Assembly: GCA_030693235.1 (NCBI GenBank)
Contig: JAUYBE010000016.1
Location: 35,917-99,916, forward strand
Length of the DNA: 64,000 bases
Source of the DNA: a bacterium
GTDB lineage: Bacteria; Patescibacteriota; Minisyncoccia; UBA6257; UBA9933
Direction: 5' to 3'
Below are positions 221 to 38,160 of this stretch, piece after piece; the first letter of the stretch is position 1, and every line of letters begins with the position of its first letter. The notes beneath the pieces are model-generated. The model was given only the letters and a program-made list of their open reading frames with translations, was not told where the DNA came from and did not search any database. A program made the translations under genes and the position numbers.

Positions 221-796
221 TTATTGATTAGAATAATTAGAATAATTTTGGTAACTTGGTTTCTCAAATGCCATAACTTTGTTAAAAGGCCAAAGCCGCA
301 ATCTAACCATACCGACGATTTCGTTTTTAGAGAGACTTCCCCAGCTCCGAGAATCATAACTGTAATTACGATTGTCGCCCAACATAAAATATTCGTTGTC
401 TTTCAAAACAATTTCCTCATTTCCCGAAGTTTTTGTCGTAGAGGGTAAATAATTTTCTCCGATTGCAAAACCTTCCGGATATTCTTTATTAAAAACAACT
501 ATTCCGCCGTTTTTAATCGCCAATTTTTCGCCCGGCAACCCGATAATTCTTTTGATGTAATAAACTCTTTCATCGCCGGGATAGTGGAAAACCGCCACCT
601 CGCCCCTTTGGGGCTCCCGAAAACGATAGCTGATTTCGTCAATTAAAAGATAATCGCCGGAAGAAAAATTCGGCTCCATCGAGGCGCCGCTCACCAAAAA
701 AGGCTGGATTAAAAAATTACGAATAATAAGAACGGCGATTACCGCCACTAAAACAACTTCAAAAATTTCCCAAAGAGAGTAAAGAAAAGATTTCAT
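221..796 (-). CDS. lepB: signal peptidase I
   Basis: N-terminal TM helix, SGASMEP catalytic Ser box, GDNRNYSYDSR box. 191 aa. Confidence 0.9.
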   Translation of the reverse strand: MKSFLYSLWEIFEVVLVAVIAVLIIRNFLIQPFLVSGASMEPNFSSGDYLLIDEISYRFREPQRGEVAVFHYPGDERVYYIKRIIGLPGEKLAIKNGGIVVFNKEYPEGFAIGENYLPSTTKTSGNEEIVLKDNEYFMLGDNRNYSYDSRSWGSLSKNEIVGMVRLRLWPFNKVMAFEKPSYQNYSNYSNQ

Positions 797-8867: not shown

Positions 8868-8960
8868 TCAATTTCCGCGAGATTTGGTTTTCGTTTCATA
8901 AATTTTCGCGTCCACCAAAAACCTATACCAAAAACCTTGCAAAAAGTTGTTTTTTTTTAT
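8868..8960 (-). pseudogene. remnant of a GT2 glycosyltransferase C-terminus (paralog of the 12817-13707 C-terminus)
   Basis: The minus-strand frame reads FLQGFWYRFLVDAKIYETKTKSRGN-stop, against the intact GT2 C-terminus HFLQGCWYRFLVDAKLYEAKNKSKQ. There is no start codon. An upstream T9/A9 homopolymer lies at 8950-8958. Confidence 0.4.
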
Positions 8961-9084
8961 CAATGAATTTCATAAAATTTGACTTTGAATGGTTGGCTGT
9001 TTCTCAATTTTATGCAACGCTTACAGATTTGCAGAAATAATTCCATCAGAGCCCAAATTCAGGATAATCAATCAATTTTAATAC

Positions 9085-9672
9085 TTATCTCAAGAATTTA
9101 AACGAGGCGAGGATTTGGTTGAAAGCGCTCTCATGTCCATAAAATTTTGATGAGCCGCCTATTCCTAATATCACTTTATATTGACCGAGTAGTAAAACAA
9201 CTGCCACCTCAGACAAACTTTCAAATTCATATTCATATTTAATACCGAGCACTCCATCGACAACTATTGTAGACGTAGTTGCCCCTATACTGAGAAATGT
9301 GCGATCAGCGAATTCGGGTAAGACGACGTTGACATCAAAAACTGAGAGGTATTTACCCTCCTTATTCCAATATTCAACTTGGAGATTAAATTTACTATAA
9401 TAACTTCCGAAAGTATTCTCTTGAACAATTAAATCATCAGGGTACTGAAATTCAAATCCATAGTCAGCGTTAGTGTACGTTTTCGTGTTATTCGCACTAC
9501 TTGCTTCAATAGGAAGAGTCAATGATGGTATTACTTGCGGTGCTGAAACTGGAAGCTGATTTTGTGGCAATGGCTTCGGTAATTGTCTGACAAAAATATA
9601 CCCCAAAACTGCAAACACCCCTACAAAAAGGATTGCTGAAATCAACAAATACTTTTTTTTAACAGAGGGCAT
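9085..9672 (-). CDS. hypothetical membrane-anchored/secreted protein
   Basis: N-terminal signal-anchor (LLISAILFVGVFAVLGYIF). No recognisable domain. Confidence 0.45.
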   Translation of the reverse strand: MPSVKKKYLLISAILFVGVFAVLGYIFVRQLPKPLPQNQLPVSAPQVIPSLTLPIEASSANNTKTYTNADYGFEFQYPDDLIVQENTFGSYYSKFNLQVEYWNKEGKYLSVFDVNVVLPEFADRTFLSIGATTSTIVVDGVLGIKYEYEFESLSEVAVVLLLGQYKVILGIGGSSKFYGHESAFNQILASFKFLR

Positions 9673-9682
9673 TATTTCGAGT

Positions 9683-10987
9683 CTATTGCGGTACGATTCT
9701 TACGGAAGCCGAACCTTTAATTATGGTTCCGTTTGTTATTCGACCTACTAAATTTGTTTTGGTACTAGTTGCGGTTAATTGTAGCGCTTGCGTGGATACA
9801 TGGACTGTAAGGTCAATAAATCCATCTCCATTGATGTCACTATAACTTGTCATAGGCTGGCCGTTGTTTTTTAACTTTACTGGTGCATTTGCAACATTGA
9901 TTGTAGTTGCGTCGATTTGCCTGACATCGAATGTCGCGGAACCGAGGATCGCGACAGGTACAACTCCATTAGATTTCAAATTAATACTGTTCGGATAGTT
10001 GCCGGGCTTGATATCTATTGCCACTGGAATAAAAGAACTGATGGTGCCGGTAGCTACTATGGTGATGCCGTAACCCCGACTTGGTATCTGGCTTACTGAA
10101 ATGTTCTGCGCCAAAAGCATGGTCGTGCTCCCTGTTTGGAACGTAAGGCTATAGGTTGCGGTCGGAGAAGCCCCAACTTCAGGAATGGCCGTAAAGATAT
10201 AATCGCCTGTTTTCTGAACTGGCCAATACACTACATCCTCCGGTTTACCATCGGACCCAAGCTCGCTTTCCGAGTAGTACAATTCTCCAGTCACTTCTCG
10301 GAGAAATTCTTCGTCGGTTTGAATTGCGGTCGTTGCAGTAATGGTAAAGCCATCAGGATCTGTAACGACAAGATCAATCGGGGAGCCGGCTTGCAAAGAG
10401 CCGCCGATGGCGGGGCTAAGGGCTACGCGCCGTAGATCTTGGCTTGCGACAAATCCAATTCTTGCCTCAAACTCTACTTTGGTGGTACTACGAATACCCT
10501 GTTGAGGTGAAAACGCCTCTACAATATCAAACGTTACATTATCACCAACATACATCGCAACATGATCTTTTATGCCATTGCTATTTTTATCAAGAAATAA
10601 CAAATCGCCCGGCTGTAAATCATTTTCAGTTATTGCTTCTGAATTATTTTTATATTGCCCATCCGCTCCATCATAACGAATCACATTGCGCAAAAGATTC
10701 CTTTTGGGGTCAAAAGAACGGTTAAATGCCCATTGTACTAATCCAGAACAATCAAGACCCGCTCCAAAATCTATTGTTCTAATCTTATTGTTCCAGAAAT
10801 TATAGCCGTTGAAAATCAAATTTACGGCTACGTATTCTCTCCGTAAAAGATCCCAACCTTTCCCGCCATAAGTATCGCCATCTCCAATATAAGGAGCATT
10901 AATAACAAGTTTCGCTAAATTTGCGGCTTTAGTAGATAAGGGCAACTGTATTTCAAAATCAATATTTCCCGCTGTGCCGAATTCCTG
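9683..10987 (-). CDS. NlpC/P60-family cell-wall peptidase domain plus C-terminal beta-rich domain; no start codon or signal peptide of its own
   Basis: GLDCSGLVQWAF...PGDLLFLD...IKDHVAMYVGDN supplies the Cys and His of the NlpC/P60 catalytic pair. The ORF caller used TTG at 10945. The reading frame is open up to the TAG at 10988-10990 and is the same frame as the upstream LamG ORF. Confidence 0.6.
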   Translation of the reverse strand, partial: QEFGTAGNIDFEIQLPLSTKAANLAKLVINAPYIGDGDTYGGKGWDLLRREYVAVNLIFNGYNFWNNKIRTIDFGAGLDCSGLVQWAFNRSFDPKRNLLRNVIRYDGADGQYKNNSEAITENDLQPGDLLFLDKNSNGIKDHVAMYVGDNVTFDIVEAFSPQQGIRSTTKVEFEARIGFVASQDLRRVALSPAIGGSLQAGSPIDLVVTDPDGFTITATTAIQTDEEFLREVTGELYYSESELGSDGKPEDVVYWPVQKTGDYIFTAIPEVGASPTATYSLTFQTGSTTMLLAQNISVSQIPSRGYGITIVATGTISSFIPVAIDIKPGNYPNSINLKSNGVVPVAILGSATFDVRQIDATTINVANAPVKLKNNGQPMTSYSDINGDGFIDLTVHVSTQALQLTATSTKTNLVGRITNGTIIKGSASVRIVPQ

Positions 10988-12085
10988 CTATTGTGAAGTA
11001 TTACCCTGCGAATCAACCGCTCTTGCTCGCCATTTATAATCTCCATCTGTTAAATTAGATTTTGTAATAACCGCTTCGCTGCCGGAGTTTACAAAATTGC
11101 TTTCTATTAAATTTTGCTCGTTAAATGGTTGATTAAATTCTTTGAGTTCTATTTGAAGTTTAGCTTGGTCATTATTTGGATCATTAAGAACGGTTTTAAA
11201 AATTACGGTTGAATCAGTAGTGATTGTATTTTCAATGATTTGAGTTTGGCCGTCGGATTTAAATTGTCCAAGATTGGAAATAGCCGGCGGCTGATTCAAC
11301 GGAGAAACTGCTAAATTGTAATAATAAGCAATTTCTTCGGCTGAACGAGCAACTTTGGAAATTCTGATTTCGTCAATTATGCCCTGCATTCTCCCTTGAG
11401 AACTTTGATAACCTCCGCCCCAAGTATGACTATTAATGTATAAAGGATCAGGAGTAGTAACTATTAAATTTGGAGAATAAGTACTTACTGCTTCTAATAT
11501 ACCATTAACATAAACCCTAGAATAACTCCCATCATAAGTAGAAACTACATAATACCACTGATTAGGTTCAAACCAACGAGTACTAATAGACGCGCCACCA
11601 AAATTACCGTTAAAATTCAATTGATTAAAACTAGTTGCACTTGCGCACCAACCTTCTTGATTTCGCATAATCTTTAAACTATAAGCATTGCTTTCGTCTC
11701 CCTTGCCCTTCTGGACGAAAGATTCATTATTTGCCCAGCATCCTAAATCAAACCCCGTAGGATAAACCCATGCCTCAATAGTAATTTGAGACAAATCTCT
11801 TAAAGAAGGATTGTCAGGAACAGTAATATAATCACCAATACCATTAAAATATCTGGCTTTGCCGAATTTACCATCTGTAATTGTCGTACCAATGGCAGTT
11901 CCATTATTTACTCCGGTTTCATCGGTTACTGTGGTGCCGAAAATATCATTAAATCTCCACAAGGCAACCGTATCTGCGTCAACGTTGAATAAATTTTGAG
12001 GGCTTACAACTTGAGCATTAACAAAATCAAAATAAATAATACTTAACGATAAAATAATAAAGATAAATATAAATTTTTTAAACAT
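10988..12085 (-). CDS. secreted LamG-like (concanavalin A-like lectin/glucanase fold) protein, probably the N-terminal part of a larger hydrolase interrupted by an amber codon
   Basis: Signal peptide MFKKFIFIFIILSLSIIYFDFVNA, then the LamG-type jelly-roll pattern (GKARYFNGIGDYITVPD...ITIEAWVYP...YVNG). Ends in TAG at 10988-10990, in frame with the downstream ORF. Confidence 0.55.
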   Translation of the reverse strand: MFKKFIFIFIILSLSIIYFDFVNAQVVSPQNLFNVDADTVALWRFNDIFGTTVTDETGVNNGTAIGTTITDGKFGKARYFNGIGDYITVPDNPSLRDLSQITIEAWVYPTGFDLGCWANNESFVQKGKGDESNAYSLKIMRNQEGWCASATSFNQLNFNGNFGGASISTRWFEPNQWYYVVSTYDGSYSRVYVNGILEAVSTYSPNLIVTTPDPLYINSHTWGGGYQSSQGRMQGIIDEIRISKVARSAEEIAYYYNLAVSPLNQPPAISNLGQFKSDGQTQIIENTITTDSTVIFKTVLNDPNNDQAKLQIELKEFNQPFNEQNLIESNFVNSGSEAVITKSNLTDGDYKWRARAVDSQGNTSQ

Positions 12086-12114
12086 AATTTTATTATAATC
12101 CGACTTTTTATAAT

Positions 12115-12729
12115 TTAATTTTTTTCCGCTAAAACAAAAATTGAATGAGAAATTGGATAAATTCGACCGTAATAACCAATTTTAACGGGCGTTAAATTGT
12201 TTTTATTTAATAAATCCAATAATGTCTTTTTAGAAAAGAACCTAATATGTGCGCCAGTCGGATTAAAATGTTTATTAAAAGCAAAAAATGTAATTAATAA
12301 ATTCTTAATAAATCCATGATAGGGAGTCGTAAATAATACTTTCCCGTCGGGCCGCAAAACGCGCGCAATTTCTTTAAAAGCGTTTTCGGTATCATAAATA
12401 TGTTCAATAACCTCCGAAGAAAAAATAAAATCAACGGAATTATCTTTTACTGGAAATTTTTCACCGTCGTTAACTTTATAAAATTCAACGTCTGACAAAT
12501 CTTTTTCCGCCTGTTCTATTGCTGTTTCAGAAACATCTAATCCGATTAATTTTGCCTTTTGATTTATTTTCTTAATTTCTCCCAAGATTTTCCCGTTGCC
12601 GCAACCAAAATCAACAATCATACTGCCTCCCAATGGAATAAATTTTTTTAATTTAGGCCATTTAAGCGAAAAGTCGCTTAAATAATCATTTTGCCCTTCC
12701 CAATAATTTTCATAAAATTGCTTAGTCAT
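12115..12729 (-). CDS. class I SAM-dependent methyltransferase
   Basis: MIVDFGCGNGKILGEI (motif I) ... VDFIFSSEVIEHI ... LRPDGKVLF. Confidence 0.75.
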   Translation of the reverse strand: MTKQFYENYWEGQNDYLSDFSLKWPKLKKFIPLGGSMIVDFGCGNGKILGEIKKINQKAKLIGLDVSETAIEQAEKDLSDVEFYKVNDGEKFPVKDNSVDFIFSSEVIEHIYDTENAFKEIARVLRPDGKVLFTTPYHGFIKNLLITFFAFNKHFNPTGAHIRFFSKKTLLDLLNKNNLTPVKIGYYGRIYPISHSIFVLAEKN

Positions 12730-12816
12730 ATTGTCATTAAAATCACTTCAAAATTTTCAAAAACTTGTTGTTTTTTATCCATTAATGAATTATAGTTCTT
12801 TAAATTTAAAAAACAG

Positions 12817-13707
12817 TTATTGCTTTGATTTATTTTTTGCTTCATAAAGCTTCGCGTCAACCAAAAACCTGTACCAACATCCCTGTAAAAAATGAAATAT
12901 CAAGCCTTCTTTGCCGTCTAAAAACCCCAAACGGAAAAAATAGCGATAAATAAAATATAGAAAAACTCGTAAAAATTTAGGGAATTTATAATAAAAATTT
13001 CTTTTTTTACCGGCGCCGTAATCTTTTCTTAATACGTCTTCCGCTTCGCGGCTGGAATAATTATTATGCTTGGCAATCCAATCCGCTAACGGCTTTTTAT
13101 TATCGTCAATAAAATCATTTTTCAATTTTTCCGCTTTTCCTTCCGATAGAATAATGTGTTCATCCATCGCGCGTTGTTCCGAGCGCGCTTTGCCCTTCTT
13201 AAAAAGCCGCAAAATCCAAGTCGGATAATATCCGCCGTGTTTTATCCAGCGTCCCATAAAATATACGCGGCGTTTCATATAATAGCCGTTAATTTTTTGG
13301 ACATCCGATGTCCTAACATTAACGTCAATATTTGGGACATCTGATGTCCCCATATTGAACAATGTTTCGCCAATTTCTTGTTTAAGTTCTTCTGTCAAAT
13401 ATTCATCCGCGTCCAAGCGTAAAATCCACTCATTTTTAATTTTCAAATTATCCAGCGCCCAATTGAATTGCTGGGCCTGATTCTCAAATTTATGCTGAAC
13501 TACCTTCACAGACCCACGCTGACTGTCCGCGTTGGTCCGCGTTAAGTCCGCGTTAGTCAGCGCTTTGGCGATTTCCAAAGTTTTATCAGTGGAATAAGAA
13601 TCAACAACAAAAATCTCATCCGCCCAATCAGCGATATTTTTCATTAACCGCTCAATATGAATTTCTTCGTTGTAAGTTAAAATTATTATTGAAAGAGGAA
13701 TTTTCAT
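12817..13707 (-). CDS. glycosyltransferase family 2 carrying two in-frame repeat insertions
   Basis: IIILTYNEEIHIERLMKNIADWADEIFVVDSYSTDKT...RLDADEYL (DxD). Repeat family 2 at 13299-13350 encodes TSDVPNIDVNVRTSDVQ. Repeat family 3 at 13521-13563 encodes LTRTNADSQRGSV. Confidence 0.8.
   Translation of the reverse strand: MKIPLSIIILTYNEEIHIERLMKNIADWADEIFVVDSYSTDKTLEIAKALTNADLTRTNADSQRGSVKVVQHKFENQAQQFNWALDNLKIKNEWILRLDADEYLTEELKQEIGETLFNMGTSDVPNIDVNVRTSDVQKINGYYMKRRVYFMGRWIKHGGYYPTWILRLFKKGKARSEQRAMDEHIILSEGKAEKLKNDFIDDNKKPLADWIAKHNNYSSREAEDVLRKDYGAGKKRNFYYKFPKFLRVFLYFIYRYFFRLGFLDGKEGLIFHFLQGCWYRFLVDAKLYEAKNKSKQ
13299..13350. repeat. twin-palindrome element, family 2 (GGACATCCGATGTCC ... GGGACATCTGATGTCCC), in-frame in GT2
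   Basis: Two near-identical 15-17 nt perfect palindromes separated by taacattaacgtcaatattt. A second copy lies at 30949-30999. Confidence 0.7.
13521..13563. repeat. GTCCGCG/GCGGACT-type oligomer repeat, family 3, in-frame in GT2
   Basis: gactgtccgcgttggtccgcgttaagtccgcgttagtcagcgc. Related runs lie at 32521-32622, 33015-33060, 34072-34155, 39381-39462 and 47111-47152. Confidence 0.6.
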
Positions 13708-13718
13708 AAATTTTTCGT

Positions 13719-14771
13719 TTACTTAAAATAATTTTCAGCCGCGAATTTATATTGCTGAATAAATAATTCTTTAAATGCCCTGATATTATTTTGTTCATAA
13801 AAAAGTATTGTTGTTTTTTTGTAATCCGCTTCATCAACGCTTCTGTAAGAAAGCGGACAAATATTATGCGCTAAAAGAATGGCATTCCCGACAAGTCGCG
13901 CCGTTCTTTTATTGCCGTCTTCGAAGGGTTGAATATAAGACATCAAAAGCACCGCAATAAGCGCTTTTACGAAAGGATTTGACATTTTATTTATCAATGC
14001 TGTCGCGTTTTCCATTGCTTCACGCAATTGATATTCATTATCCAACGGCTTATATTTCGCGCCGACAACGCCAACGGCACGTTTTCTTATGTTATAAGAA
14101 ACATTTAATCCGGCAACCAATAAACGATGAATATCGCTTATTTTTCTAATTGTTATTTTTTTAAAATCGCTTTTATTGGCGAAAATATAATCAAGCGCTT
14201 TTTTGTGATTTAGAATCATTATCGCCTCTTCTTTTTTGTGCCCCCTGGCTTCTTTGCGCTCTTTAATAAGAATCTCCGTGTCTATCAAAGAATAAGTATT
14301 GCCTTCTATTTGAGAAGATTTCCAACTCAATTCAATCGTCAATCGCTCAAATTCTTTTTTTAAAATCGCCGGAGATAATTTTTTGATTCTTTTAATATAA
14401 TCATCTTTTATTTTTTGCAAATCAGCTAATTCATCTTCGCTTAAAATATTATTCAAGTCTTTAAAAACGCCGAAATTAAATCTTTCAAAAGCCACCCGCC
14501 TTTCATCCGGTCCTTTTTTAAAATATTCATCAATATCAATATAACCAAGCAATTTGCTTTCAACGGCTTCCTGATAATAGACCCCTCGGCCTTTGCCGAT
14601 TTTTTTAATCAATCCGTTATTCGCAAGAATATTGATATCTCTGACAACAGTAATTCTGGAAAGTTCTCCGAATATTTTTTCCGCATAATTTTTAATTTCT
14701 TTATTGCCGGCTTTCCCGCTTTTTCTAATAAATTCAAGAATTTTAAATTGACGAGCAGTTAATTTTTCCAT
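13719..14771 (-). CDS. Fic/DOC (Fido) family protein with N-terminal winged-helix; degenerate Fic motif
   Basis: The core motif reads QPFEDGNKRTAR in place of HPFx(D/E)GNGRxxR, so the catalytic His is replaced by Gln and the second Gly by Lys. The N-terminal KILEFIRKSGKAGNKEIKNYAEKIFGELSRITVVRDINILANNGLI resembles a wHTH. Confidence 0.7.
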   Translation of the reverse strand: MEKLTARQFKILEFIRKSGKAGNKEIKNYAEKIFGELSRITVVRDINILANNGLIKKIGKGRGVYYQEAVESKLLGYIDIDEYFKKGPDERRVAFERFNFGVFKDLNNILSEDELADLQKIKDDYIKRIKKLSPAILKKEFERLTIELSWKSSQIEGNTYSLIDTEILIKERKEARGHKKEEAIMILNHKKALDYIFANKSDFKKITIRKISDIHRLLVAGLNVSYNIRKRAVGVVGAKYKPLDNEYQLREAMENATALINKMSNPFVKALIAVLLMSYIQPFEDGNKRTARLVGNAILLAHNICPLSYRSVDEADYKKTTILFYEQNNIRAFKELFIQQYKFAAENYFK

Positions 14772-14808
14772 CTTTTTATAATTGTATCATTATTTATCAA
14801 TAATTGTA

Positions 14809-14907
14809 TCATTTTGATACAATAAATACAACGATGTTTTTCAATAACCGCTCAATATGAATTTCTTCATTGTAGGTTAAAATTATGACGCTGACGGGGA
14901 GTTTCAT
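14809..14907 (-). pseudogene. truncated duplicate of the GT2 (12817-13707) 5' end
   Basis: Translates MKLPVSVIILTYNEEIHIERLLKNIVVFIVSK-stop, 32 aa. Nucleotides 14833-14888 match 13633-13688 at high identity. Confidence 0.6.
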
Positions 14908-35112: not shown

Positions 35113-37005
35113 TTATTTAGCAATATAAGCTTGTACGCCTACAGCTGTTGGAAGAGCATATAAGTAGTCAACAACACCTGTTGTACCATTTGGATTTGCT
35201 GTCAACCGAATTCCACTTAATTTGGCATTGTTATAACCATCAGCTGCTGCTACTGTGATTTTGTAACTAACAGTAAATGTATTTGTTGATCCATTTATGA
35301 TCTTAAATACACCGTCTGTATTAACAGAATCAGTAGATGTTATGTCTAGCTGAGTAAATGAATAAACGGTAGATGTTGGTGTTCCATCTAATACTCCTTG
35401 AGCTAACAAAATACCCTGTGCTGCTCCTGCAGCAGCAGTAATGTATTCATTTCGTCCATTAGCTTTTACGCTAAACGAAAGAGTTCCTGTCATTTGCTGA
35501 GGAGTTGCACTACTAATTATGTTTGCAACTAGTGGAGTGCTTGCACTAACGAAAGCAACAGTCGGAGCATATTCGTAGAAGTACATCTTTTCACCTGTAA
35601 CTGGAGCTGGTGTAGCCACAGCTGTGAATGAAGGACCAGTTGTAGCAGTAATTGTAGAAATAGCTGCAGTAATTGCGTCACCATTAACTACAAAACTTTC
35701 AGCAAGATGATTCATCTTTGCATATACTGACAATGTTTTTGTTACATCTTTTGCTAAATCGATATTTAGAAGAGGGAAGGTAAATGTTCCAGCTCCTGTT
35801 ACAGAAGCTAGAATATTTGCACCATCACGAAGCTCAAATGAAGCAACAGCCCCTGAAACAGTAGTGCTAGCACCAACTCTTGCAGCAGTACCAGCTATAG
35901 CTGTAATATTAACTGCTCCAACTTTTGCTTTAAGATCAAAGTCCATCAACTTAACATCAGTCAAAGTTCCAGCAATAGTGTTAAGACCAGAAACTGCTTG
36001 TGTTTTTGGAGAAGATAAACTTAAAGAATTTTCTAATGTACCTGCTGCAGTAACAGCTGTACTTGAAAGATTTATAATACGAGCTGTCATCTTGTAGACA
36101 TCTGAGATACCTGCACCATCAGTTGCTCTTACTGTACTTGTATTAAGTACATTAGTTGAAACACTAGCAGAAGTAAGTTCTGGACGAGTAACATTCAATG
36201 TCAAAATCTTTGTTGTTCCAACTGGAACTACTACATTAAGACCATTGAATTGAAGTTGATACGCAGAACCTGCTGTAACCTCAGTAACGGTTGAAGCTGA
36301 AAGAGGAATAGTTGCAAGAACTGTTGAGCCATCTGACAAAGTAATATTACTTGCAGACAACCATATACGACTGTCGATATCTAACCACATACGAGTAACT
36401 TTCATATCAGAACCTGTAGCCTTGAGCTTTATAGCCATAACATCTTTACTCTCACCTTTTAGAACAGATAAGTTGTCTGAAGGAAGAGCGTCGTAAGTTA
36501 CGGCGAGTGAACCTTCAACTCCGGGAACTACTGGGGTTGCCGGGGTTGCTGGGGTTGCTGGGGTTGCTGGGGTTGCTGCCAAACTGGCAACATACGCCCG
36601 AGATTTTGGACCAAAATATCCGACTGCCGGAGAAACTCCGACTGCCGCTTGATATTTAGCCAAAGCCGCCTTGGTTAATGAACCGAAGGTGGTTGTTTCA
36701 TTGCCCGCGGAACCGGCTCCAGTAGCAGCCACAGCATAACCTTTTGAATTCAAGAATTGCTGTAACGCTTTAACATCGTCTCCTTTTGAACCAAGAGTGA
36801 GGTCTTTAGTAAAGGTATACGATGGAACGACTGGGGCTGTGGTTAATTGCGCTTGCAACAACTGAATCTGAGCCAATAAGGCGTTAATTTGCGCCTGAAT
36901 GTCAGTTTGAGCTGAAGCTGGCAAAACCATAGTGACGCCAGACAATGAAATCGCGACGGCCAATGAAAGACCAATCGTTGAAAACTTTTTAATTGTATTA
37001 CCCAT
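35113..37005 (-). CDS. secreted cell-surface protein with peptidoglycan-binding domain (PG_binding_1) and long Thr/Ala/Ser-rich beta-rich region
   Basis: Signal peptide, coiled-coil (IQAQINALLAQIQLLQAQL), DDVKALQQFLNSKGY...FGSLTKAALAKYQAAVGV, (PAT)4 linker, about 470 aa of low-complexity beta-rich sequence. Codon composition differs visibly from its neighbours. Confidence 0.55.
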   Translation of the reverse strand: MGNTIKKFSTIGLSLAVAISLSGVTMVLPASAQTDIQAQINALLAQIQLLQAQLTTAPVVPSYTFTKDLTLGSKGDDVKALQQFLNSKGYAVAATGAGSAGNETTTFGSLTKAALAKYQAAVGVSPAVGYFGPKSRAYVASLAATPATPATPATPATPVVPGVEGSLAVTYDALPSDNLSVLKGESKDVMAIKLKATGSDMKVTRMWLDIDSRIWLSASNITLSDGSTVLATIPLSASTVTEVTAGSAYQLQFNGLNVVVPVGTTKILTLNVTRPELTSASVSTNVLNTSTVRATDGAGISDVYKMTARIINLSSTAVTAAGTLENSLSLSSPKTQAVSGLNTIAGTLTDVKLMDFDLKAKVGAVNITAIAGTAARVGASTTVSGAVASFELRDGANILASVTGAGTFTFPLLNIDLAKDVTKTLSVYAKMNHLAESFVVNGDAITAAISTITATTGPSFTAVATPAPVTGEKMYFYEYAPTVAFVSASTPLVANIISSATPQQMTGTLSFSVKANGRNEYITAAAGAAQGILLAQGVLDGTPTSTVYSFTQLDITSTDSVNTDGVFKIINGSTNTFTVSYKITVAAADGYNNAKLSGIRLTANPNGTTGVVDYLYALPTAVGVQAYIAK

Positions 37006-37332: not shown

Positions 37333-38160
37333 TTACGGCGACCATTTTGACGCTCCGAAGATAATCATTGCCAGAATCAAAAACATCGTGATGTTTCTTA
37401 AAACTATCCGGCGGTTGATGGTGCCGCTTAAATGATGAACGATAAAATCCTCCAAAATCAGCGCGATGAGCAGCATCAAAGAAGCGGCGTTAAAAGAACG
37501 GAACGGCAAAAAACCAATAACCCAAAGGAATTGAAGAGACAAAAAAGCCGAACCGCTGGCCATTAGATTTACTTTTTGATTTCCGAGCGGAGCTGAGATT
37601 GCTTCGGCTCCGCCTCGCAATGACATAAATAAAAATTCTTTAAAAAGAAAGAAGGTCGCCGAAAATGCCGCCGAAGATTTAACCAGAAACCAAAACGGCT
37701 GCTCAAAATTATTAAAACTGAAAAAATAAACAAAAACCGTTAAAAGCAAAAGACTGTTTAAAAGATAATATAATGGTTCACGCCGGATAAAAATCAAATC
37801 CTTGATTCCCAGGAGAAGGAAGAAGAGGAAGGAGAAGAAAATAACAATGACTATTGACCATTGACTATTAACTATTGACAAATTAACGGCTAATAAAGAA
37901 GCGGCGAGAAGCGTTAAAAAAGAGACGAGAAATTGGCGGGTGTTGAAAAAAGAACGGAAATAGAAATAAAAGGAGACAGTCAAGAACACGATGACTATTG
38001 ACCATTGACTATTGACAAGATAAAGAAGAACGGAAAAAACCGTTGCCTTAAGCGCCAATATTAAGAGTAAGCCCTTGGGGGTCTCTAAAACCGATTTTAA
38101 TTTTTTTAACATTTTTAAACTCGCCTTTAATGATTTTATCTGCCAATTGGTCAAGAACAA
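37333..38160 (-). CDS. hypothetical polytopic membrane protein with internal duplication and family-1 half-element
   Basis: [10 protein letters not shown] occurs twice (DNA 37850-37880 and 37990-38030). [10 protein letters not shown] is encoded by half-palindrome 37596-37624. The annotated start overlaps the clpB 3' end, so the start is uncertain. Confidence 0.35.

Follow-up and report, generated by a model that had tools for sequence, protein, structure and literature searches.

The NlpC/P60 (MEROPS C40) enzymes, among them Escherichia coli MepS/Spr, Bacillus subtilis LytF/CwlS, and Mycobacterium tuberculosis RipA/RipB, are built around a papain-like Cys-His core and are made as exported precursors. 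These named enzymes are targeted via LysM, SH3b, or coiled-coil modules. Here we analyze the gene for a predicted secreted hydrolase of this family that is interrupted by a single in-frame TAG codon; it lies in a 64-kb stretch of a Patescibacteriota genome (assembly GCA_030693235.1, contig JAUYBE010000016.1, positions 35,917 to 99,916 of the forward strand), hereafter called the window. The encoded protein resembles the named enzymes in its core and in being an exported precursor but differs from them in its LamG and Ig-like targeting modules, in an extra beta-rich C terminus of 250 amino acids (aa), and in the interruption itself. Its matches to the NCBIfam models RipA/RipB/RipC and PRK10838 are weak, and because they score at most 25 bits, far below the equivalog cutoffs of 186 to 625, the protein has no orthologue among the named enzymes.

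Intact proteins with LamG, Ig-like, and NlpC/P60 parts (database entry P0002 and the genes at two loci, L002 and L003) have the same domain order as the window protein, are 54 to 60% identical to it over 96 to 100% of its length, and are followed by the same small downstream gene. They differ in being encoded by a single open reading frame (ORF) each, with TGG (Trp) in place of the TAG. Other relatives (P0009 and P0011 to P0019) share the hydrolase half, with 61 to 74% identity from the Ig-like domain to the C terminus, but carry a different N-terminal targeting module, for example, a beta-helix. An in-frame stop with an intact frame beyond it is also what is seen in programmed stop decoding, such as pyrrolysine insertion at UAG, UGA read-through in the A1 protein of phage Qbeta, and decoding by suppressor tRNAs. 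In contrast to those systems, the stop in the window gene is not conserved, the window holds no decoding machinery or tRNA-CUA, no stimulatory structure follows it, and TAG terminates other genes normally.

Layout of the interrupted gene

The hydrolase gene, on the minus strand, consists of 800 codons and a terminal stop, with one internal TAG at codon 366 (Table 1). Its upstream ORF begins with ATG and runs for 365 codons (365 aa) from 12085 to 10991, ending at the TAG at 10990 to 10988 (10988 to 12085 with the stop). Past this codon, the frame stays open for 434 codons until the terminal TAG at 9685 to 9683. A first-pass annotation had placed both halves in the same frame with a single TAG between them, and the translation, which contains one internal stop, bears this out. 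The read-through product has 800 residues (801 codons translated, including the terminal stop), close to the roughly 790 aa estimated at first, and reads ...NTSQ-X-QEFGTAGNIDFEIQLPLSTK across the junction, where X is the stop position. As had also been observed, the downstream part has no ATG at its start: its first start-type codon is a TTG located 14 codons 3' of the internal TAG, and the next in-frame Met is residue 511, beyond the catalytic Cys.

Long ORFs that share a frame and have just one stop between them occur as three pairs in the window, the hydrolase pair included. The other two, an RluD-like gene with the gene for ribosomal protein L19 and an epimerase gene with a small unrelated ORF that has its own start, are read as unrelated neighboring genes; the hydrolase pair is therefore more than a chance arrangement. 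NCBI records its halves as two separate proteins, MDP3015293.1 (“LamG domain-containing protein”) and MDP3015292.1 (“NlpC/P60 family protein”), since ORF calling splits the gene at the stop.

Table 1. Positions of the interrupted hydrolase gene, its parts, and neighboring genes in the window
Feature	Position	Strand	Basis or remark
Whole interrupted gene	9683..12085	-	Translation; full-length homologues
Putative Sec-type signal peptide, residues 1-24, MFKKFIFIFIILSLSIIYFDFVNA then Q	12014..12085	-	Inspection; cleavage site placed by eye
LamG/concanavalin-A-like lectin domain, Pfam residues 82-253	11327..11842	-	PF13385; conserved block at about residues 30-262 (alignment A1)
Ig-like beta-sandwich linker, residues ~286-380	10946..11230	-	Big_13 match and AF2 model; split by the stop
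Internal TAG, codon 366	10988..10990	-	Replaces TGG (Trp); C-to-T on the plus strand at 10989
TTG, first possible restart; start in the public annotation	10943..10945	-	Aligns to an internal Leu of homologues
NlpC/P60 (C40) papain-like peptidase core, residues 442-519	10529..10762	-	PF00877
Beta-rich C-terminal region, residues 546-800	9686..10450	-	85% identical to P0009
Partner gene, 195 aa, N-terminal membrane anchor or signal sequence	9085..9672	-	Directly 3' of the hydrolase gene
Signal peptidase I gene	221-796		Elsewhere in the window

Homologues of the read-through product

We searched for homologues with the read-through product as the query, with X at the stop. Seven of them (P0001 to P0007; 784 to 815 aa) are uninterrupted, cover 96 to 100% of the query at 54 to 59% identity, and carry both PF13385 and PF00877. 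One, P0002 (815 aa), is annotated as a “C40 family peptidase” of a Candidatus Wolfebacteria bacterium. In a collection of species-representative genomes, the Patescibacteria metagenome-assembled genome (MAG) H41-bin049 has two such genes (L002 and L003), single ORFs of 809 and 791 aa, and the nearest relative in that collection is 60% identical. Given the contiguous architecture of the seven homologues and the H41-bin049 pair, the contiguous LamG-NlpC/P60 form is the norm among relatives of the window gene, already present in public databases as intact Patescibacteria proteins. We also looked for homologues whose halves are separate genes, both with a start and a signal peptide of their own, and encountered none among the sequences retrieved. 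A literature search on Patescibacteria NlpC/LamG proteins found nothing relevant. The two ORFs are the sole members of their 90% clusters.

The residue at the stop position is nearly invariant: among the homologues containing the motif W-x-A-R-A-x-D-...-S-x-[?]-Q-E-F-G-...-D-F, 36 of 37 have Trp and one has Phe, whereas a stop at this site is found in none. At the codon level, L003 reads TCA CAA TGG CAG GAA TTT where the window reads TCA CAA TAG CAG GAA TTC, so that the rest is identical or synonymous, and L002 likewise has TGG in place of TAG. Because the Trp is so well conserved and the flanking L003 codons match in this way, the stop is best explained as a single G-to-A transition in the conserved TGG codon for Trp366, that is, a C-to-T change on the plus strand. 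In AT-rich genomes, C-to-T is the most frequent spontaneous change. From these comparisons of sequence, it is nearly certain that the two ORFs derive from one ancestral gene in which a Trp codon became a stop; the proposal that a single secreted LamG-NlpC/P60 hydrolase gene has been split by a TAG is thus upheld by its contiguous full-length homologues.

The same Ig-like motif, with its Trp intact (WRARAVDDKDNKSQWQEFG), occurs in P0085, a 1,099-aa protein from a source given as “bacterium” and annotated as “NosD domain-containing protein”. It probably represents a paralogous module encoded by the same genome as the window gene.

Domains of the protein and position of the stop

From N to C terminus, the protein consists of a signal peptide, LamG, an Ig-like domain, NlpC/P60, and then about 250 aa of beta-rich sequence. 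The N terminus of the upstream ORF, MFKKFIFIFIILSLSIIYFDFVNA/Q, has two lysines, a hydrophobic core (best 15-residue Kyte-Doolittle mean, 2.86), and then VNA, and by inspection it looks like a Sec signal peptide. The LamG assignment of the first-pass annotation is confirmed by the Laminin_G_3 profile (PF13385), which scores 83.2 bits against a cutoff of 27.6 (E value, 2.7e-23) and aligns over profile positions 2 to 151 of 151. The downstream half, said to lack a signal peptide, indeed has no hydrophobic stretch at its N terminus (best Kyte-Doolittle mean, 0.99). The peptidase followed by a beta-rich domain was correctly recognized there: NLPC_P60 (PF00877) scores 43.6 bits against a cutoff of 23 (E value, 3.2e-11). 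The catalytic residues are Cys446, encoded by TGT at 10750 to 10748 within DCSGL, and His508, encoded by CAT at 10564 to 10562 within DHVAMYVG. Both are invariant in the alignment of full-length homologues (A2), and Cys446 is invariant in 18 of 18 sequences of alignment A1. From the profile score and this Cys/His pair, we assign the predicted catalytic domain to the NlpC/P60 family. The C-terminal region, residues 546 to 800, has no match to a Pfam family. The GC content is 0.46 to 0.52 across 9850 to 10450, compared with 0.33 to 0.39 in the surroundings.

Where the stop falls within this architecture was judged from profile matches and a structural model. In the 365-aa ORF, a Big_13 match reaches the last residue with 18.3 bits, below the Pfam cutoff of 27; with the Trp put back, it spans the stop site and rises to 23.3 bits, still below that cutoff. 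The Ig_Rha78A_N match behaves in the same way once the Trp is restored and is also below its Pfam cutoff. An AlphaFold (AF2) model of the repaired protein was built from an 8-sequence alignment, with a mean predicted local distance difference test (pLDDT) score of 51.7 and a predicted TM (pTM) score of 0.34. It is poor as a whole, and only the secondary structure of its better-predicted Ig-like part was used. There, where block means of pLDDT are 61 to 84, strands are predicted at residues 286 to 358 and a last strand at 377 to 379, that is, after codon 366. The stop thus sits within the Ig-like domain, ahead of its last strand, rather than at a domain boundary; with a strand beyond the stop and a Big_13 match spanning it, the truncated product would be left with an unfinished beta-sandwich at its C terminus.

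A probable recent nonsense mutation and the alternatives

On every point that could be tested, the interruption behaves as a nonsense mutation would, and on each testable point of programmed recoding the evidence speaks against it or is inconclusive. We consider it likely that the TAG is a real nonsense mutation and that the sequenced population carries the gene as a pseudogene, inactivated recently, or as a truncated allele. The downstream half bears no sign of decay: it has no further stops, it retains Cys446 and His508, and its identity to P0009 is 77% in the peptidase and 85% in the C-terminal region. Since it is undecayed, the mutation would have to be recent; otherwise, either the base is wrong or the gene may still be of some use. 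Three origins of the stop had been offered at the outset, namely, a nonsense mutation, a sequencing error, and programmed read-through. The first is favored by the 36 Trp residues at this position, the second is less likely, given an identical second assembly, and the third is without support.

Several observations weigh against a nonsense mutation. The base is known from an assembled consensus, with which a consensus error or a mixture of alleles is compatible, and the two assemblies that contain it may share their reads. That 800 codons show no other damage is just as expected if the true base gives TGG or if read-through keeps the gene functional. The scan for suppressor tRNAs covered 64 kb of the genome only. 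Finally, of the 13 TAG codons in the window, only the internal one has C as its next base; after the 12 terminal ones, the next base is T, A, or G. A C after the stop codon makes for weak termination in E. coli, and some full-length protein may still be made.

If the base itself were in error, at the sequencing, assembly, or consensus stage, the true codon would be TGG and the gene an ordinary one of 800 aa. This would account for the otherwise flawless frame, in which all conserved residues are kept, and for a change of a single base found in one genome only. No sister strain with either TGG or TAG turned up in the JGI metagenome contigs when we searched them for the exact 22-base junction pattern (N at the variable base), nor did a codon-degenerate pattern for AVDSQGNTSQ-?-QEFGTAGN find a match there. 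Yet in the separately built Logan assembly of SRR13727537, a contig of 10.5 kb matches the window with 100% identity over 7,241 bp, TAG included, although that assembly possibly shares its reads with the NCBI one; because this second assembly carries the identical TAG, an assembly artifact is an unlikely source of it. At normal Illumina coverage, a wrong base in the consensus is rare. Among the approximately 50 ORFs of the window, we saw no second broken gene. The overlap between ClpB and a neighboring ORF at 38048 to 38160, considered as a frameshift that would signal a poor assembly, proved not to be a broken gene, since ClpB is complete. We therefore regard an error as unlikely, though it is the alternative that survives best.

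Leaky or regulated read-through at a weak UAG-C would yield much secreted LamG fragment and little full-length hydrolase. The intact downstream frame and the C next to this TAG, alone among the 13, would fit such a scheme. That C, however, begins the next codon, for a Gln that is conserved after the Trp in homologues, so we read the C as an accident of the mutation site and not as a signal. No homologue was found that ends at the junction motif, and, as noted above, none of the 37 has a stop there. The 116 nucleotides from the stop fold no better than shuffled sequences (minimum free energy, -21.5 kcal/mol; z = -0.71), which provides no read-through-stimulating RNA structure. None of the 8 tRNA genes in the window has the CUA anticodon that a suppressor or pyrrolysine tRNA would carry, in agreement with the initial finding that no suppressor tRNA was to be seen. 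In addition, TAG serves as a normal terminator in the rest of the window, a point already made for the end of pth. Across 52 ORFs, TAA is used 32 times, TAG 13 times, and TGA 7 times, and the 12 other TAG codons are real gene ends, including those of pth (ORF 838 to 1497; PF01195, 1.5e-43) and of the RluD-like gene, whose TAG lies ten codons before the rplS start. Finally, a product with an incomplete Ig-like domain is implausible as a designed isoform. Taken together, regulated read-through is very improbable. Slightly less probable still is a version in which UAG-C is retained deliberately as a leaky stop, giving mostly the LamG lectin fragment with a small, controlled dose of full-length enzyme, or, in a milder form covered by the same estimate, in which the allele is polymorphic in the population and switches a surface hydrolase of an episymbiont on or off. 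If true, this would be a bacterial chromosomal counterpart of the read-through isoforms of phages and viruses.

That the two ORFs are distinct functional genes, one for a LamG lectin that is secreted and one for an NlpC/P60 enzyme of 420 aa that starts at the TTG and stays in the cytoplasm, is about as improbable as regulated read-through: NCBI records two proteins, LamG-only relatives of 514 to 548 aa exist, and the TTG-started ORF holds the whole peptidase domain, but those relatives end elsewhere with a different C terminus, the TTG corresponds to an internal Leu in homologues, the split falls within a domain and not between domains, and all 60 homologues with the catalytic-Cys motif have at least 219 residues before the Cys, nearly all of them beginning with a hydrophobic signal or anchor and none starting near the junction, whereas the Cys would be residue 66 of the TTG-started ORF.

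Three further candidates were rejected. Genome-wide reassignment of TAG does not agree with the use of all three stops, with the 12 other ORFs ending in TAG, or with the presence of one interrupted gene only. A diversity-generating or repeat-mediated mechanism at the junction finds no template- or variable-type repeat touching the gene, and the nearby repeats are glycosyltransferase remnants only. The similarity to P0009 starts 17 nucleotides past the TAG, which raised the possibility that a recombination junction made the stop; the stretch across the stop is colinear and in frame with homologues, and only TGG-to-TAG sets it apart from their conserved motif. The boundary of similarity, at 10971, instead reflects the switch from a more divergent Ig-like module to a conserved peptidase module. 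Nothing in this locus bears on a genetic-code change or on programmed recoding.

With a nonsense mutation as the likely explanation, the following sequence of events can be proposed. The ancestral single gene would have encoded a secreted modular peptidoglycan peptidase until TGG became TAG at Trp366. Ribosomes would now stop at codon 366 and produce a secreted LamG fragment with an Ig-like domain minus its last strand and no peptidase. The peptidase half would remain unmade, or be made in traces only, by near-cognate read-through or by reinitiation at the TTG at 10945; a reinitiated product, having no signal peptide, could not reach the cell wall. Premature termination may also reduce expression of the downstream partner gene through polarity. 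The intact protein would be exported by the Sec pathway, with signal peptidase I encoded in the same window, and would bind glycan by its LamG domain. By analogy with the NlpC/P60 (C40) family, it presumably cleaves the stem peptides of peptidoglycan with its Cys-His pair.

Modules, partner gene, and locus context

The closest relative changes from module to module of the window gene: it is P0053 for LamG (75% identity), P0008 for the Ig-like domain (79%), and P0009 for the peptidase (77%) and the C-terminal region (85%). This suggests domain shuffling, or module exchange, within the family. At the DNA level, identity to the P0009 locus is 83% from window position 10971 to 9090, with the partner gene included. 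The Pfam lists of the homologues show that the LamG N terminus is also joined to an M23 peptidase (PF01551) and to lipase/PGAP1-like domains (PF07819 and PF02450) and that the Ig-like and NlpC/P60 module recurs behind other N termini, such as a beta-helix (PF13229/PF05048). The sequences suggest that Patescibacteria have a family of surface enzymes put together on a mix-and-match basis. In this family, a conserved set of Ig-like, NlpC/P60, and beta domains, along with the small partner gene, goes with exchangeable N-terminal targeting modules such as LamG or a beta-helix.

The partner gene lies directly 3' of the hydrolase gene in all relatives inspected (L002, 8623 to 9003; L003, 8532 to 8969; and L020, 3536 to 4117). 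Its product is 49% identical to that of L002 and 43% identical to that of L003 by tblastn, and 77% identical to the product of the 193-aa gene that follows P0009 in L020. The only Pfam match of the 195-aa protein is a sub-threshold one to PsbP_2. It could be a partner, an anchor, or an inhibitor of the hydrolase.

The split hydrolase and its partner gene belong to a block of about 5.9 kb (approximately 8949 to 14832) that also holds a Fic-domain gene, an intact GT2 glycosyltransferase gene, and a methyltransferase gene. The block is flanked, on the minus strand, by the first 25 to 32 codons, approximately, of another GT2 gene (14907 to 14833) and by about its last 24 codons (8948 to 8877). Compared with the intact GT2 gene at 12817 to 13707, the first 25 codons are 84% identical and the last 24 codons 75% identical in amino acids. 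It looks as if the block was inserted into an older GT2 gene. The block with the hydrolase gene, bordered by what is left of a disrupted glycosyltransferase gene, is thus a rearranged accessory region, in which gene loss is plausible and would not be surprising.

The Fic/DOC-family protein of the block (PF02661, 3.4e-12) is encoded at 13719 to 14771 on the minus strand, among polysaccharide-synthesis genes. Elsewhere in the window, a 630-aa protein encoded at 35113 to 37005 on the minus strand matches PG_binding_1 (4.5e-07), has no other recognized domain, and is a candidate cell-wall-acting protein.

Implications

The finding is an ordinary one, and its main use is the correction of an annotation. 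With MDP3015293.1 and MDP3015292.1 as halves of one gene, counts of domain architectures and predictions of the secretome for this MAG are slightly off. The interruption would also be a minor addition to what is known of gene loss in accessory cell-envelope loci of Patescibacteria. Beyond the stop codon, the mix-and-match enzyme family to which the gene belongs may be of greater biological interest.

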